Assembly (NCBI GenBank): GCA_040225955.1
Contig: JBECUL010000006.1
Coordinates: forward strand, 1-64,000
Direction of reading: 5' to 3'
Origin: Candidatus Asgardarchaeum abyssi
GTDB taxonomy: Archaea; Asgardarchaeota; Asgardarchaeia; Asgardarchaeales; Asgardarchaeaceae
DNA: 64,000 bases
Positions 6,674 to 15,843 of this stretch are shown here, one piece after another. How positions within the stretch are numbered: position 1 is the first letter of the stretch; each line of letters starts with the position of its first letter. Position numbers and translations under genes: made by a program. The notes beneath the pieces are model-generated. The model was not told the origin of the DNA and did no database searches. It was given only the letters and a program-made list of their open reading frames with translations.

Positions 6674-6949
6674 ATGCCAAAGGGTGTAAAAAAGAGAAAG
6701 TCAGCATATATTTATGTGAGTGAATTAAAGAAATACGCCAAAAAGAAGGGTGTAAAGGTTTCTCAGAAATTCATTGATTCACTCAACGAAAGCGTGGTTA
6801 AAATCTTAGACATGTCAGTCGACAAATGTCGTAAGATGAAGAATAAGACACTCCTGCCAAAGCACTTACCCGAGGCTGCCAAGTTCGACGAACTAGTCAA
6901 AGCCTTTGAAGAGTTCAACAAGACAGTTACCAAGGTCTTAAAGAAATAA
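6674..6949 (+). CDS. Atypical archaeal histone-fold protein with basic N-tail and C-terminal helix
   Basis: YIYVSELKKYAKKKGVKVSQKFIDSLNESVVKILDMSVDKCRKMKNKTLLPKHL matches histone-fold alpha1-L1-alpha2-L2 spacing; T-rich terminator follows. Confidence 0.7.
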   Translation: MPKGVKKRKSAYIYVSELKKYAKKKGVKVSQKFIDSLNESVVKILDMSVDKCRKMKNKTLLPKHLPEAAKFDELVKAFEEFNKTVTKVLKK

Positions 6950-9844: not shown

Positions 9845-12031
9845 TTGTTGGTGAGGTCTTTGTTTTTCAAGAAAAAAGTGAGAAAGGACATCGATAAGAT
9901 TATTGGGGCGATTGAAAGCAAGAATCCTTCCGATGAATTAGAGGCCTCTTGGATAGTTTTAGATCTCATTAGAACCGAGAGATATAAGGAAGTTAAAAAG
10001 GAAGTCTTGTTTAAAGTCTTATCAAGAAGTTTATATGAAAGCAGCACTAAGGATTTAAAGAGAATAGTGATGTTTGCGATTTCAGAATTATTTGCTAACG
10101 ATTATTTCTCATTCGATCAAATATCTAATATTGCATTTCGAGCCTTTAGTGATGAGGACCCATATATTCGTCGTTCCTCAATGAAAATATTTCTTGAGGC
10201 AGTACAAAAACTGGCACTTCCAGTTTCCAAGATGAAAATTATTTTAGATAGGGCCTTACGTGATAATGATGCTATCGTAAGGAAAACCGCAATTGATTTG
10301 ATAGATTTTGTTATTTCTAATCCAGTTTATAGCTATTCTGATATACTAGAGTTGATAAAATGGAGTGTTTATGCGGACACAAAAATGTACGATGCTGCCC
10401 TCTCTTATGCTAAAGCCTTATTAGAACAATATATGGAGAACCCGGATGTCGTTCGCGAGGCTATTTTAGATTTACTTGATGACAAAAATAGTGATGTCAT
10501 AAAGATAGGAGAGGGGCTTCTTAATAGCTTAATTAAAACTGGCTATTTCAAAAGTCCATCTGATATTCTGCCATATTTAACTAAATCGTCGAGTATAAAC
10601 TTTCTGCTTTTTAGGGATTTGGTTGATTTATTAATTTCATTTGAAGATTTCAGTAAGGGGGACTTGTTGGATTTTGCTTATGAGTTAATAAATGACTCTG
10701 AAATTGAAAAAGTTAAGTCGGGTCTAATACTACTCTCAAATATTACAATGTTTGATTGGGTTCCCTCAGATTTGCTTGAGTTTTCAATCAATAAAGGACT
10801 TGAAGTGGCTGATACCAGAATTGAGACATTAAGATTAGTTGAGTCTTGCTTTTACAGCAAAAAAATCAAGAGAAGTGTGCTTTTTGAGAAGACCATAAGT
10901 TTACTTTCTTACTCTGATGAAAGTCTAAGGGAAGCAGTCATATATACGCTCACAAATATGGGGAAGACCGAACCTAAATATGCTCAACATATAATTGAAA
11001 CTGTCTATGAGTTATATAAAGAGGAAAAAATATCGAAATACCTTATGCTGCATACCCTTTTTGAATTAAGCTTGCAAGCCCCCCTCTTTGATGAGAAAAT
11101 TGTAATAAAGATAATTAAAGATCTTCTCAACGAAGAGTATGAGCCATATAGACGTGATGAGGTTGCTTCTAATATAGCGCTAATTGCCTGTCGGTTATCC
11201 GCAAAACCAGGATTTAATACAGAAACCATATATGACTTATTCGAAGGCGAAAAATTCACTGACAAGGAGTATGAATATACTGTTTTCAAAATTAATGTCT
11301 TGATTGAAATTGCAAGTTGTCTTATTGAGAGTGGCGTTTTCACACAACGTGATTTAGATAAACTTCTAAATGTTCTTCCAGAGAATGTAGTTGTTTCAGT
11401 TCTTCTTCCCCTTCTTGTAGAAAAAAGCGAAAAAGACGCAACTACTACAGAGAAATATATCTCCCTATTAAATAACGTAATTTTTGGAAGCAAAGATGAA
11501 CGAGCAAGAGAAAAAGCAGTAGATACTTTAATTAGAATGTATGAGAAAGAACTCGTAGATAAAAATAGAATGTTCTCCATAATATATTCTCTCATGGCTC
11601 AACAAAACTCTAAAGAGGTACCACGTCTCGGTTTACTCTTGCTTGAGAACATAATAGACAAAAATATGAAAAACATTCTATACTCCTTTGAAATAAAGAC
11701 ACTCATAGAGCTTGGCTTTAACAATGACTTCGTAGAGATAAAGAATCTAACAGAATACGTGTATAAGAAGTTCTTAGACTCCGAATTACTTCCTTTTGAA
11801 AAGAAAGTGAAAATAATAAATGACTGGATAATTGGTCGTTATACAATCTCAGTAAAGCGGGGTGTTGCAAGGATGTTAAAGCAAATATCTGCATACTCTC
11901 TCTATCATCTGATAATTAACGGCCACGCTTTTCCTATGGACGACTTAAAGGAATACATACAACTACTGGATAGTGAAAGGGATGCCTATATAAACTCGAT
12001 GATTAAAAAGATCAAAGAGCTTCTCACATAA
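9845..12031 (+). CDS. HEAT/ARM-repeat protein with adaptin-N-like segment
   Basis: Repeated D.D..VR..A motifs (DEDPYIRRSS, DNDAIVRKTA, SDESLREAV, KDERAREKAV); helical throughout. Confidence 0.7.
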   Translation: MLVRSLFFKKKVRKDIDKIIGAIESKNPSDELEASWIVLDLIRTERYKEVKKEVLFKVLSRSLYESSTKDLKRIVMFAISELFANDYFSFDQISNIAFRAFSDEDPYIRRSSMKIFLEAVQKLALPVSKMKIILDRALRDNDAIVRKTAIDLIDFVISNPVYSYSDILELIKWSVYADTKMYDAALSYAKALLEQYMENPDVVREAILDLLDDKNSDVIKIGEGLLNSLIKTGYFKSPSDILPYLTKSSSINFLLFRDLVDLLISFEDFSKGDLLDFAYELINDSEIEKVKSGLILLSNITMFDWVPSDLLEFSINKGLEVADTRIETLRLVESCFYSKKIKRSVLFEKTISLLSYSDESLREAVIYTLTNMGKTEPKYAQHIIETVYELYKEEKISKYLMLHTLFELSLQAPLFDEKIVIKIIKDLLNEEYEPYRRDEVASNIALIACRLSAKPGFNTETIYDLFEGEKFTDKEYEYTVFKINVLIEIASCLIESGVFTQRDLDKLLNVLPENVVVSVLLPLLVEKSEKDATTTEKYISLLNNVIFGSKDERAREKAVDTLIRMYEKELVDKNRMFSIIYSLMAQQNSKEVPRLGLLLLENIIDKNMKNILYSFEIKTLIELGFNNDFVEIKNLTEYVYKKFLDSELLPFEKKVKIINDWIIGRYTISVKRGVARMLKQISAYSLYHLIINGHAFPMDDLKEYIQLLDSERDAYINSMIKKIKELLT

Positions 12032-12090: not shown

Positions 12091-12741
12091 TTGTGGGATA
12101 TGTCATTTAAGAGCCCACTAAAAAATCTAATTGAGATGATAGAAAACTTTTGCAGAACGCATCCTCAATTAAAGCCGTACTTGATATTCCAAAGTATCTA
12201 CGAAATAGGAAGCAAAAGTCGTATTGGTCGATATTCTCTCTCCAAAGAGATAGGTCTCAGTGAAAGCACTGCTAGAACCTTACTTAAATTCTTAAAGCGA
12301 GAAGGATTAATAATTTCGATTCCTAAGAGTGGGCATCGTCTGAGTAATGTTGGGCTCGAGATTTTTGAGCATCTTAAGAAATATATTGGTAGCGTTAAGG
12401 AAATTGAAGAACTTGAAGAATTCAGACCTGCAAAATATGCAATTGGAATTTTAATAAGGGGAGCATCTAAGTATATAAAAAAGGGATTAGAAGAGCGAGA
12501 TGATGCTGTTAGAGCTGGAGCTAAAGGAGCTACAATTATTGTGTATGAGAGAAACACATTCTCAGTACCATCTGTTTATCCTGAGTTGGTGGGGGAAGAA
12601 AAAAATATTTTAATAAAAATTTTTTCACCAAGCGATGGTGACGTAATAGCTATTGTTTTTGCAGACAATCGATCCTCTGTGAAACAAGCTGCGTTTGCTG
12701 TAGCCTATTATTTGCTGAAAAGAAAACTCGGAGTTAAATAG
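12091..12741 (+). CDS. DUF4443-type winged-helix DNA-binding protein
   Basis: IGRYSLSKEIGLSESTARTLLKFLKREGLI...G wHTH plus GLEERDDAVRAGAKGATII C-terminal motif. Confidence 0.75.
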   Translation: MWDMSFKSPLKNLIEMIENFCRTHPQLKPYLIFQSIYEIGSKSRIGRYSLSKEIGLSESTARTLLKFLKREGLIISIPKSGHRLSNVGLEIFEHLKKYIGSVKEIEELEEFRPAKYAIGILIRGASKYIKKGLEERDDAVRAGAKGATIIVYERNTFSVPSVYPELVGEEKNILIKIFSPSDGDVIAIVFADNRSSVKQAAFAVAYYLLKRKLGVK

Positions 12742-12772
12742 ATAAAAAATAGACAAAAAATTCAAATATATA

Positions 12773-12793
12773 ACTAGGATAACTTATCCTAGT
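12773..12793. promoter_or_regulatory. Perfect 21-bp palindromic operator ACTAGGATAA-C-TTATCCTAGT
   Basis: Directly downstream of TATA-like AAATATATAA and 8 bp before ATG 12802; identical arms at 13961-13981. Confidence 0.8.
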
Positions 12794-12801
12794 GATATGT
12801 A

Positions 12802-13407
12802 ATGTTCAGACTGCTTTCGAAAACGAGGTCCATAGAAGTTGCGGCAATTTCTGTCTTCACAGCTTTATCTATTGGTGGTGCTTACGCATTAGCTGTCATC
12901 CCAAATGTTGAATTGATGAGTTTATTTGTCTTCACAGCCGGATTCTTATTTGGAGTACACGTAGGAGCTGTCGTTGGTTTATTCTCCATGCTAATATATA
13001 CGATTTGGAACCCTTGGGGTTCTCCTATCATTGTAATTTCCATTGCTCAAATAATAGGCATGGTGACATTTGGAGTTGCAGGTGGAATTTATGGGAGGCG
13101 ATGGAACGATAAACACGATATAACATTCCTTAATATGCTGGAAATTGGAATTACAGCTGGATTTCTAACCCTCTTTTATGATTGTATCACAAATATAGCT
13201 TATGCTGCAGCTTTTGGCCTATTAGATGCGCTAATTATAGTTTTTATTATGGGATCCATTTTTATGATTGTTCACACGATTTCCAACATAGCATTCTTTA
13301 CAATTTTTATAGGACCGTTGGTGCGAATTGCAGATAATTTTGAAGAGTATTTGAGAAAGAGCGGTGACAAAGCTTTAGGTGATAGTTATGAAAATCGAAA
13401 ATCTTAG
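12802..13407 (+). CDS. ECF transporter S-component (CbrT-like, probable corrinoid uptake)
   Basis: IPNVE motif, GFLFG..VG, about 6 TMs, HTISN; coupled to a DUF4430 gene. Confidence 0.7.
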   Translation: MFRLLSKTRSIEVAAISVFTALSIGGAYALAVIPNVELMSLFVFTAGFLFGVHVGAVVGLFSMLIYTIWNPWGSPIIVISIAQIIGMVTFGVAGGIYGRRWNDKHDITFLNMLEIGITAGFLTLFYDCITNIAYAAAFGLLDALIIVFIMGSIFMIVHTISNIAFFTIFIGPLVRIADNFEEYLRKSGDKALGDSYENRKS

Positions 13408-13843
13408 AATATTATTAGCTGGGTTATTGCTGATTGTTATCATTTCAACATTAGCTTTTGTTTACTTGACATATAAACCATATCCATATACTAATGGGAA
13501 TATAGAGCAAAAACCAAATAGCGAAATCAAGCCAGCCTATAATTTAACTTTGATAATTGACTATGGTAACGGAACAATTGAGGTTCACTACAATCTGAAT
13601 CTTACAAATGTGCCTAATATAACAGCATTTCATATTCTATTCTTGGTAGCCACTGTAAATTATACCTGGTACGGAGATGATGTCTTTGTTGATGCAATAA
13701 ATGGTGTATGGAATAATGAGAATGACAATAACAGATGGTGGCAATATTGGGTTGATGACGAATTGCCGATGATTGCTGCAAACCATTACTACCTCAAGAA
13801 TAATAGTGTAGTGGCGTGGAGATACTGGACACCACAAGTATAG
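13379..13843 (+). CDS. Membrane-anchored DUF4430 (transcobalamin C-terminal-like) protein
   Basis: IDYGNG, FVDAINGV.N, WWQYWV.......AANHY motifs; N-terminal TM. Confidence 0.8.
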   Translation: MIVMKIENLRILLAGLLLIVIISTLAFVYLTYKPYPYTNGNIEQKPNSEIKPAYNLTLIIDYGNGTIEVHYNLNLTNVPNITAFHILFLVATVNYTWYGDDVFVDAINGVWNNENDNNRWWQYWVDDELPMIAANHYYLKNNSVVAWRYWTPQV

Positions 13844-13905
13844 ATGATAATTTGTTGCAAGTCTTTTATAATTCTAGTAAGGAGTTTTCTTTATTAGCAG
13901 ATATT

Positions 13906-13925
13906 AATTGCCTAAGGAGGCAATT
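13906..13925 (+). terminator. Hairpin AATTGCCT-AAGG-AGGCAATT followed by T-rich tract
   Basis: 8-bp perfect stem downstream of the DUF4430 gene. Confidence 0.4.
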
Positions 13926-13958
13926 TCTTTAATTTTTTGTAGATAGATTTTTATTTTA

Positions 13959-13983
13959 AAACTAGGATAATTTATCCTAGTTT
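13959..13983. promoter_or_regulatory. Second copy of the operator: AAACTAGGATAA-T-TTATCCTAGTTT
   Basis: Perfect 12-bp arms between a TATA-like TTTTATTTTAAA and RBS GAGGTGA of the next gene. Confidence 0.8.
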
Positions 13984-13986
13984 GAG

Positions 13987-14694
13987 GTGAAAAATATGAA
14001 ATGTCCCAAAAAAGTATCCGCGATTATAATCATGTTGATAACTTTAAGTTTGCTCACTCAACCTGTAGCTGTATTTGGCAATAATATAGAATGGGGCGTA
14101 AAAGAAGGTGATACGATCACATGGACTGTTGTCATAGCTCCGAATACTACATTTTGGTGGTGGGACCCAGTTACTGGTCTCGTAAAGGTTAAGGTGAACG
14201 AAGGGGACATAATGGAGTATAACATTACAAAAATAGACGATGATACACTATACGGTGATTTTAAGATAGGGAATCTAACAGTAGCGAATGTAACAACAGA
14301 TACTATTGGCATGAATCTCGTCTTTGGATTATGGCCATTTATCACAGGTCCTGTTGTTAAACCAGATTGGCAGAATATAACATCTAAGGCTGAGGACTGT
14401 AATGTTAAGACAATAGAAGAAAGTAACTTTGAATGGTATCTTGGGCTACCAAGAAATGTGATAACATTTGCGAATGAGACAGATAGCGGAGCATTTAGGC
14501 TTGTGTATGAGAAAAGTACAGGAGTTATGCTTTATGGCTATGGAAGATTTGGAAAATATGAATTGGGTGTGGAGATCAAGTCAACAACAGTATCTCTTGG
14601 TATTAGCGAAATCCTCTATATTGTCGTTGGTGTCCCAATAATTGTAATAATAGCTATAGTTATAGCAAGTATGTTTATTAAGAAAAAAGAATAA
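13987..14694 (+). CDS. Secreted/surface protein with signal peptide and C-terminal TM anchor
   Basis: N-terminal signal peptide, WGVKEGD motif, N-x-T sequons, C-terminal TM followed by KKKE. Confidence 0.75.
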   Translation: MKNMKCPKKVSAIIIMLITLSLLTQPVAVFGNNIEWGVKEGDTITWTVVIAPNTTFWWWDPVTGLVKVKVNEGDIMEYNITKIDDDTLYGDFKIGNLTVANVTTDTIGMNLVFGLWPFITGPVVKPDWQNITSKAEDCNVKTIEESNFEWYLGLPRNVITFANETDSGAFRLVYEKSTGVMLYGYGRFGKYELGVEIKSTTVSLGISEILYIVVGVPIIVIIAIVIASMFIKKKE

Positions 14695-15487
14695 CTCCTC
14701 TATTTTTTCTTAAAATAAGAAGAAGCGCAGGAGTTTTTTTATCATGTGAGAATACAGGACCAAAACTTTCTTTTTTTATAAAAGTAAACCCCACTTTTTC
14801 TAAAATTCCCATAAACTCTTCAAAATTTAGTCCAACTTGGGGTTCATAAAAGAGTATTCTTCCGTTTGGCTTTAAAACACGCCAATTTTCTCTTAAAAGC
14901 ACTTCCCATGATTTTCTATCAATATCATGAAACGCCCATACATATGTAACATAATCAAAATACCCATCTGGAAATGGTAGTTTCTTAGATGACCTAATAG
15001 AAACAAGTTTAAATCTATCACCCAGCTTATAAAGCTCTTTAAATTTCAAACCAACATTAATTCTCTGCTCATCAATGTCTACACCTATATAGGTACATTT
15101 CTTCTTATTTACTAATATAACTCCCAGATAGCCATAGCCGCATCCTATATCAAGTACTGTTGTCTTTTCCTTTATGTACTTACTAACGATAGCTTCACGT
15201 TCGCTTAGATAAATTATATGTGATTTAAAGTCATCTATATTACCGCCAAATCTTAACATACCACTAATAATCGCTAGAGAGCCATATAGAAAGCCAAAAT
15301 CACTTAAGAATTTATATAGCTCCTCATCAGTGTTAAAGATTTTCTTTGCAAGATTTATAAAATCTAAAGTTTTCTTCCTTAAGAAATTTGCCTCGCCCAT
15401 TCTTAAACCTCGTATAGTTGTAACTTTATGGGAAGTGGAATCTTCATAATTATTTAGGAGATATACTTCTTCATTACTATTATACAA
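14678..15487 (-). CDS. Class I SAM-dependent methyltransferase (likely start 15400)
   Basis: VLDIGCGYG, GVDID, LPFPDGYFD, RVLKPNG motifs. Confidence 0.88.
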   Translation of the reverse strand: MYNSNEEVYLLNNYEDSTSHKVTTIRGLRMGEANFLRKKTLDFINLAKKIFNTDEELYKFLSDFGFLYGSLAIISGMLRFGGNIDDFKSHIIYLSEREAIVSKYIKEKTTVLDIGCGYGYLGVILVNKKKCTYIGVDIDEQRINVGLKFKELYKLGDRFKLVSIRSSKKLPFPDGYFDYVTYVWAFHDIDRKSWEVLLRENWRVLKPNGRILFYEPQVGLNFEEFMGILEKVGFTFIKKESFGPVFSHDKKTPALLLILRKNRGVILFS

Positions 15488-15603: not shown

Positions 15604-15843
15604 TCAGAGTTCATAGATTTTTACTTTTCCCTGCTCATTGAAAACTTCGAACTCTTTATTGTCTATAACTATGTACGCTTTTACTTTTGCGTTTGTCAAT
15701 ATCTTAGACTTTACTATATCGGCAAAGAGTTCAAAAGCAGCACCAATAGTCCTAATATCCTCATCATAAAATTTAGTAACATCTTCTATTTTTATCTTCT
15801 CAGTATAAAATTCTCTATAAAGAGAGGAAAGAAAGGTTCTCAT
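15604..15843 (-). CDS. Small hypothetical protein (79 aa), probable homologue of 3209..3430
   Basis: RBS GGTGA then ATG at 15843 (the track uses GTG 15852); ungapped C-terminal alignment with the 3209 ORF. Confidence 0.7.
   Translation of the reverse strand: MRTFLSSLYREFYTEKIKIEDVTKFYDEDIRTIGAAFELFADIVKSKILTNAKVKAYIVIDNKEFEVFNEQGKVKIYEL

Follow-up and report, generated by a model that had tools for sequence, protein, structure and literature searches.

Two palindromic operators of a probable corrinoid regulon and a candidate DUF4443 regulator in Candidatus Asgardarchaeum abyssi

In the present study, we analyzed a 64,000-nucleotide stretch of the genome of Candidatus Asgardarchaeum abyssi (hereafter the window; assembly GCA_040225955.1, contig JBECUL010000006.1, positions 1 to 64,000), in which positions 12,091 to 14,694 contain two palindromes with identical arms, a winged-helix gene of the DUF4443 family, and three genes for a putative corrinoid capture and import system. 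The palindromes are very likely the operators of a regulon for corrinoid uptake, salvage, and use because the same core precedes uptake, salvage, and corrinoid-use genes across the phylum. The DUF4443 protein is probably the reader of this operator. On balance, we consider it likely that the locus forms a self-contained corrinoid capture and import module under the control of the DUF4443 protein through the two palindromes. The features of the locus are as follows.

12100–12741, + strand: DUF4443/PH0730-like winged-helix gene, 213 amino acids (aa), probable regulator (PF14544, 7.8e-21; CggR_N and PH0730-like_N in the N domain)
12764–12772, + strand: TATA-like box of the S-component/DUF4430 unit, AAATATATA, directly 5' of operator 1; the same order is found in orthologous promoters
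12773–12793, no strand: operator 1, putative; perfect palindrome with 10-bp arms and the core TAGGATAAcTTATCCTA; half-sites are kept at the orthologous position elsewhere
12802–13407, + strand: energy-coupling factor (ECF)-type S-component, CbrT-like, 201 aa (family profile A2 matches 6FNP_A; 11 of 11 relatives match PF12822)
13388–13843, + strand: membrane-anchored DUF4430 protein, 151 aa, with a transcobalamin-like C-terminal domain (PF14478, 2.2e-11)
13948–13960, + strand: TATA-like box of the surface-protein gene, TTTTTATTTTAAA, abutting operator 2
13961–13981, no strand: operator 2, putative; perfect palindrome with the same arms as operator 1
13996–14694, + strand: surface protein, 232 aa, with a signal peptide, an open beta-barrel domain of approximately 170 aa, and a C-terminal membrane anchor (synteny; AlphaFold2 model)

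The 21-bp palindrome ACTAGGATAA-N-TTATCCTAGT was present at 12773–12793 and 13961–13981 with identical 10-bp arms, exactly as originally described. The pattern ACTAGGATAANTTATCCTAGT matched exactly at both positions and gave no match in 100 dinucleotide-preserving shuffles, even when three mismatches were allowed. In the whole genome (2,635,050 bases), the two sites in the window were the sole matches to CTAGGATAANTTATCCTAG at three or fewer mismatches; the assembly searched comprised 2.64 Mb in 189 contigs and was 93% complete. One other match to the 13-bp core GGATAWNWTATCC was found outside the window (contig C8, 47322–47334) and was rejected as a chance palindrome in a tRNA-like sequence. 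This match adjoins the T-arm motif GGTTCAAATCC.

Both palindromes have a TATA-like box on the 5' side and a start codon on the 3' side, and this part of the prediction was confirmed from the sequence at both sites. Operator 1 directly follows its TATA-like box, and 8 nt separate the operator from the ATG at 12802. Operator 2 likewise abuts its box; the 14 nt between this operator and the ATG at 13996 contain a GAGGTGA ribosome-binding site. Archaeal repressors such as MDR1, Phr, and TrmB usually occupy sites between the TATA box and the start of transcription, and the operators of the window similarly stand 3' of the box. Therefore, we infer that the operators are in a repressor position and overlap the start of transcription.

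Three metagenome contigs carry the same locus at protein identities of 88–100%, and both operators are preserved. Operator 1 was unaltered in two of these contigs (L176 and L177), as was operator 2 (L177 and L179). Footprinting at this close range was uninformative because the spacers of the locus-bearing contigs were approximately 99% identical. Seven other metagenome matches of the 19-mer had no related genes nearby and appear to be due to chance.

We then compared genomes of the same phylum (Asgard), including Thorarchaeota, Hermodarchaeota, Atabeyarchaeia, and Promethearchaeota; 201 genomes were used for the pattern counts. The strict 17-mer pattern TWGGATAWNWTATCCWA was present in 62 of the 201 genomes and its reversed control in 8, while the half-site pattern with a 3–8 nt spacer was found in 82. 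The core half-sites TAGGATA-N3-TATCCTA occur upstream of the S-component/DUF4430/surface-protein cluster in other families. Atabeyarchaeia carry the variant TTGGATAA-N-TTATCCAA. Thorarchaeota often have a 22-bp form, TAGGATAGGTTAACCTATCCTA, which can be read as two overlapping 17-mers offset by 5 bp and is located upstream of the DUF4430 gene (loci L132, L134–L138, L156, and L160). This form might accommodate two dimers on opposite faces of the DNA.

The genes following the operator in these genomes belong to corrinoid metabolism. They include btuF (Peripla_BP_2), btuC (FecCD), the ABC ATPase gene btuD, and genes for a CobD-type aminotransferase, CbiB, CbiZ, CobS, and CobY; a divergently oriented CobT gene (DBI_PRT) is found at the btuFCD-cobD-cbiB-cbiZ-cobS-cobY operator loci. 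The operator also precedes operons that encode a B12-binding corrinoid protein together with URO-D-like methyltransferases. The palindrome is, accordingly, a signal shared by the promoters of archaeal cobalamin transport, salvage, and synthesis genes, as is characteristic of a B12 regulon. The scan of this genome and its relatives, which the original prediction had proposed, gave two sites here and corrinoid genes across the phylum. An association with unrelated genes or an adjacent DtxR-type metal regulator, which had been named as the outcome that would speak against the proposal, was not observed.

In almost every orthologous promoter of the transport and salvage genes, the site is located just 3' of a TATA-like box, with 2–41 nt between the site and the start codon. 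At the corrinoid-protein operons (L085, L115, L118, and L128), it is located 72–109 nt upstream of the start codon, a position that would fit activation and possibly reflects it. In the genome analyzed here, the corrinoid-protein gene (contig C3) lacks an intergenic promoter region of its own. At further sites (L122, 6375–6391; L124, 6086–6102; L077, 15640–15656), the operator was observed before a short Asn-synthase-like gene, in two families, and before a propionyl-/methylmalonyl-CoA-type carboxyltransferase gene. It is possible that these genes are further members of the regulon.

In bacteria, the same classes of uptake and salvage genes (btuFCD and cbrT-type genes) are controlled by the cobalamin riboswitch (RF00174), presumably also through feedback by the cofactor. 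The system of the window differs in that it would employ a DNA operator and a protein instead of an RNA leader. A search of 41 genomes of the phylum, including this one, gave no RF00174 match, while seven bacterial controls did match, and the window contained no match to any Rfam family at or above the gathering score. With lengths of 8 and 14 nt, the leaders leave no room for a riboswitch, as had been argued for this locus. The proposal that a protein operator takes the place of the riboswitch was also upheld: the same half-sites precede corrinoid uptake, salvage, and use genes phylum-wide, and RF00174 was not detected in the genomes searched.

The closest known signal appears to be the "CBL-box". 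It was reportedly predicted by Rodionov, Vitreschak, Mironov, and Gelfand (J Biol Chem, 2003) as the DNA signal bound by a hypothetical regulator of B12 genes in some archaea. The CBL-box reportedly also comprises palindromic DNA signals before archaeal cobalamin synthesis and transport genes, in the place of the riboswitch. To our knowledge, no regulator was named in that prediction. The system of the window differs in its linked DUF4443 candidate, its occurrence in Asgard archaea, its ECF-type module, and its new surface protein.

The winged-helix gene, directly upstream of the operator genes as predicted, is located at 12100–12741, with an alternative start at TTG 12091, and is the sole DUF4443 gene in the genome. 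A homologue was also matched in Sulfolobus acidocaldarius, which served as a control in this search. Its product matched PF14544 at 74.4 bits (cut-off 27) over residues 112–205 and PDB 2P8T with a phmmer E value of 2e-11 over residues 39–209. The AlphaFold2 model had a predicted local distance difference test (pLDDT) score of 95.1 and aligned to 2P8T with TM scores of 0.72/0.83 and a root-mean-square deviation of 2.7 Å. The domain score and the two-domain 2P8T fold place the protein in the DUF4443/PH0730-like family (PF14544 with PF22167). PH0730 of Pyrococcus horikoshii (2P8T) has the same winged helix and DUF4443 two-domain fold at 26% identity; however, it is a structural-genomics protein with no assigned function, operator, or ligand, whereas the protein of the window has a candidate operator. 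The only mention of the PH0730 family that we found in the searched literature lists it among winged-helix families (PMC6316755), and no mention of DUF4443 was found in that literature. The vitamin-responsive repressors NiaR/TM1602 and BirA, both of which appeared weakly in the Foldseek listing, also combine a winged helix with a C-terminal effector domain. However, the effector domain of the DUF4443 protein is GAD-like, unlike those of NiaR and BirA, and no homology was shown beyond the winged helix.

Several lines of evidence connect this protein to the operator. At least 24 genomes, which belong to four families, have a DUF4443 gene no more than 2.5 kb from the motif, and DUF4443 was present in 55 of the 62 motif-positive genomes. 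Conversely, the 33 genomes of families f4 (0/21), f19 (0/7), and f16 (0/5) had neither DUF4443 nor the strict 17-bp motif; two of the f4 genomes contain a divergent S-component/DUF4430 pair that lacks both the regulator and the palindrome. In Atabeyarchaeia, the recognition helix shows a change from R to K and from GRY to SRT/SRS where the operator changes from TAGG to TTGG, although this represents one event only. Regarding gene neighborhoods, tblastn on the flanks of DUF4443 homologues found all four genes clustered, with varying order and orientation, in families f5, f11, f12, and f17, while family f2 keeps DUF4443 and DUF4430 only; we count these as at least five other families with the cluster. 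When loci were retrieved independently, by way of the S-component, 33 were obtained. The 31 archaeal loci all have a DUF4443 gene directly beside that of the S-component, and most of them also carry the DUF4430 and surface-protein genes.

The three genes downstream had been described as an ECF S-component with DUF4430 and an uncharacterized surface protein, and this description was substantiated. The S-component (12802–13407) is a polytopic membrane protein that by itself had no Pfam match above the threshold (PF12822, E value 0.011). However, PF12822 (ECF S-component) was matched by all 11 members of its family alignment, the best at 5.2e-10. The profile A2 made from these eleven homologues contains invariant polar residues in the membrane (PNVE, NPWG, YDxxTN, and HxxSN). 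Its best PDB match was 6FNP_A (CbrT) with an E value of 8.9e-5, followed by RibU (0.005). 6FNP is CbrT of the vitamin B12 transporter ECF-CbrT of Lactobacillus delbrueckii (Santos et al. 2018, PMC5997447). Similar to the protein of the window, CbrT is a small S-component of approximately 180–200 aa with IPNV and H..N motifs and uses a shared ECF module. However, the relation is distant (E value 8.9e-5, at the profile level only), and the archaeal genes invariably occur with those of two extracytoplasmic proteins (DUF4430 and open-barrel). CbrT was studied by co-expression with an ECF module in an Escherichia coli strain without metE and B12 uptake (PMC5997447). Homology to S-components was, therefore, found at the profile level. 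Nine CbiQ/EcfT genes scored above the cut-off on other contigs of the genome and none adjoins the locus; therefore, a shared ECF energizing module is available. The protein is the probable corrinoid-translocating subunit, with its substrate suggested by the regulon context and DUF4430. A bacterial homologue of the S-component (Eiseniibacteriota, L145) had no riboswitch nearby and, therefore, gave no independent clue to the substrate.

The DUF4430 gene (13388–13843) is the sole one in the genome and overlaps the S-component gene by 20 nt; therefore, the two genes are probably co-transcribed. Its product belongs to the DUF4430 family, matching PF14478 at 44.4 bits (cut-off 23.8) over residues 79–146. 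In vertebrates, this domain forms the C-terminal part of transcobalamins (PMC4350170).

The surface protein (13996–14694; alternative start GTG 13987) had no Pfam family match. Its family comprised 281 representatives at 50% identity, many of which have two or three tandem domains. The AlphaFold2 model (pLDDT 91.5) was an open beta-barrel with two helices. The best Foldseek match had an E value of 1.2e-3 with TM scores below 0.35, while VIA gave Z scores of 8.4 for 4fvs and 5–7 for LolA, LolB, MucB, and VioE, a range that the tool calls common. Among ten long relatives tested, five had 2–3 domain copies and a C-terminal DUF4430 domain (P0040, P0062, P0063, P0088, and P0091; 585–628 aa). Because of this fusion and synteny, we assign the surface protein to the capture system, in which it is probably the corrinoid-capture partner of DUF4430. 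The original prediction of a new corrinoid-related surface protein is supported by these fusions and by the conservation of the gene in the cluster, with the start now placed at 13996. BtuG and BtuH of Bacteroides are reportedly surface B12-capture proteins. They resemble vertebrate transcobalamin and intrinsic factor in being extracellular high-affinity capture proteins that feed a membrane transporter, as is proposed for the proteins of the window. In contrast to BtuG/BtuH, the partner protein of the window is modeled as an open beta-barrel, possibly of the LolA-like class (by a middling fold match), and not as a beta-propeller, and it would be anchored in the archaeal membrane by a C-terminal helix.

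Not all results favored control by a corrinoid-responsive DUF4443 repressor. The DUF4443 gene of the window has no operator upstream of itself. The looser half-site pattern matched genomes of two families that lack DUF4443 (3 of 5 in f16 and 1 of 7 in f19); however, most of these matches have spacers other than 3 nt. Furthermore, 91 of the 139 motif-negative genomes still contain DUF4443. A possible cause is variation in the operator, of which the 22-bp form of Thorarchaeota is an example. The co-occurrence of the motif and DUF4443 is, therefore, imperfect. The presence of the site at operons of corrinoid-using methyltransferases is left unexplained by a simple model of a B12-bound repressor. 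Regarding the protein itself, the C-terminal domain resembled the GAD insertion of AspRS and no known B12-binding fold in model and Foldseek comparisons, and no conserved His or Cys able to bind cobalt stands out. The conserved residues form the pattern RD...GAxGAT...EGD (R133, D134, G140, G143, A144, and D181).

A further point against DUF4443 comes from genus g15 of family f14. Three of its genomes, which are 82–91% complete and one of which consists of 20 contigs, carry perfect operators before the same target genes with no detectable DUF4443. These sites (L077 [G017:C6], 6826–6842 and 15640–15656; L076, 7547–7563) are on the full btuFCD-cobD-cbiB-cbiZ-cobS-cobY/cobT block and the S-component cluster. 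The queries used on these genomes were the full-length protein, the N-terminal half alone, PF14544, PF22167, and profile A3, and they found neither DUF4443 nor a PH0730-like N domain; the matches obtained instead were GntR/FCD and DtxR-type proteins (the latter next to feoB) and ribosomal protein S19e. A fourth genome of this genus, with 9% contamination, has DUF4443. Because one genus has the operator with no detectable DUF4443, we regard DUF4443 as the probable rather than the proven regulator. The original suggestion of its role was supported by its adjacency in 31 of 31 loci and by the families that lack both it and the strict operator, and was not supported in genus g15.

This genus is also a reason to consider that the palindromes are operators of the corrinoid regulon read by another protein, such as a DtxR-type winged-helix repressor, with DUF4443 merely co-located in another role. 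The only related winged-helix proteins found in these g15 genomes are DtxR-type. The N domain of the DUF4443 protein is itself weakly similar to the DtxR DNA-binding domain (PF01325, E value 0.007; PDB 8pvt, E value 0.046), the operator resembles the TAGG...CCTA frame of DtxR/IdeR boxes, and the genome of the window has one DtxR-type gene (contig C13). However, DtxR-type genes never adjoin the operator in the loci examined, while a DUF4443 gene adjoins the S-component gene in all 31 archaeal loci retrieved and its absence from whole families is accompanied by that of the strict motif. The full-length DtxR-type protein of f14 is marked as an iron regulator because its gene is beside feoB; G017 also has a short DtxR-type protein. 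The joint change in the recognition helix and the operator in Atabeyarchaeia also argues for DUF4443, and the targets are corrinoid genes and not metal transporters. The DUF4443 protein is not a DtxR-type metalloregulator, as its match to PF01325 (17 bits) is below the cut-off of 26 and it lacks the Fe_dep_repr_C domain. A search of this genome for a DtxR-like box by its consensus gave nothing convincing. We consider another reader to be quite unlikely. A slightly less unlikely explanation is that DUF4443 binds the sites but senses a signal other than a corrinoid (cobalt, a lower-ligand precursor, or a general metabolic signal) or acts as an activator here. The unfamiliar C-terminal domain and the distant site at the corrinoid-protein operons are compatible with this explanation. 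However, the regulon consists of genes for corrinoid uptake, salvage, and use rather than cobalt transporters, and the site at transporter promoters occupies the usual position of an archaeal repressor.

The suggestion that the palindromes act in RNA, as hairpins in termination, processing, or translation control, or are remnants of mobile elements is highly improbable. A palindrome with 10-bp arms could fold as a hairpin, and site 2 is located within the 152-nt spacer after the DUF4430 gene. However, the arm sequence itself (TAGGATA/TATCCTA) is kept across families with no compensatory changes, and a 1-nt loop is sterically poor. Since the sites stand 3' of TATA-like boxes and 2–41 nt before start codons, most of them would be at or before the start of the transcript. 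Moreover, there are two genomic copies only, with no flanking repeats or transposase and no Rfam match.

Based on these results, we propose the following model for the preferred reading, namely, control by DUF4443. A dimer of the winged-helix protein is predicted to bind both 21-bp palindromes. The bound protein would block the recruitment of RNA polymerase because each palindrome lies between the TATA-like box and the start of its unit. When enough corrinoid is available, the cofactor or a close derivative would bind the C-terminal DUF4443 domain and favor DNA binding. Under these conditions, unit 1 (the S-component and the DUF4430 protein with its membrane anchor) and unit 2 (the anchored surface protein with the open barrel) would be switched off, and a shortage of corrinoid would allow both units to be transcribed. 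In that state, extracellular corrinoid would be captured by the two surface proteins and passed to the CbrT-like S-component, which would rely on one of the shared ECF energizing modules of the genome. Binding of the sites by DUF4443, repression, corrinoid as the effector, and the substrate of the transporter are all inferred.

In this genome, tblastn with the proteins of relatives did not find btuF, btuC, cbiB, cbiZ, cobS, or cobT in the 93%-complete bin, while a corrinoid-protein gene was present. Because these six genes were not found in a genome with a corrinoid protein, uptake of the complete cofactor appears to be necessary. Within the limits of the bin, the module may be the only route of this organism to the cofactor.

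Archaea are heavy users of B12-type cofactors and lack the riboswitches of bacterial B12 genes, and the searched literature names no protein that controls archaeal B12 genes. The feature described here is real and has an ordinary regulatory logic, and appears to be a well-supported instance of the predicted archaeal B12 control system. The new elements would be a named candidate regulator and a new family of capture proteins. The locus is compact: it combines a small regulator, for whose family a structure has been solved (2P8T), with a pair of perfect operators and a three-gene capture and import module. We more tentatively speculate, with doubt prevailing, that DUF4443 is the long-missing archaeal B12 regulator, that its GAD-like domain is a new corrinoid sensor, that it represses uptake and salvage genes and activates methyltransferase operons from sites 70–110 nt upstream, and that the open-barrel and DUF4430 proteins form a new B12-capture system feeding an ECF transporter. 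If the proposal is correct, functions would be obtained for DUF4443, for DUF4430 in archaea, and for an unnamed surface-protein family, and a new corrinoid-sensing domain could be defined. B12 auxotrophy and cofactor exchange would then become readable from the genomes of Asgard and other uncultured archaea, which bears on syntrophic lifestyles.

Two neighboring genes were also considered. A class I S-adenosylmethionine-dependent methyltransferase gene (14678–15487, − strand), convergent with the surface-protein gene, was dropped from the system because its product is not related to the motif-preceded methyltransferase of L125. Its best NCBIfam match, "corrinoid protein-associated methyltransferase CpaM", scored 53 bits, far below the cut-off of 180. 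Directly upstream of the regulator gene, a 728-aa HEAT-repeat protein is encoded at 9845–12031 (+ strand); no link between this protein and the corrinoid module was found in the relatives examined.

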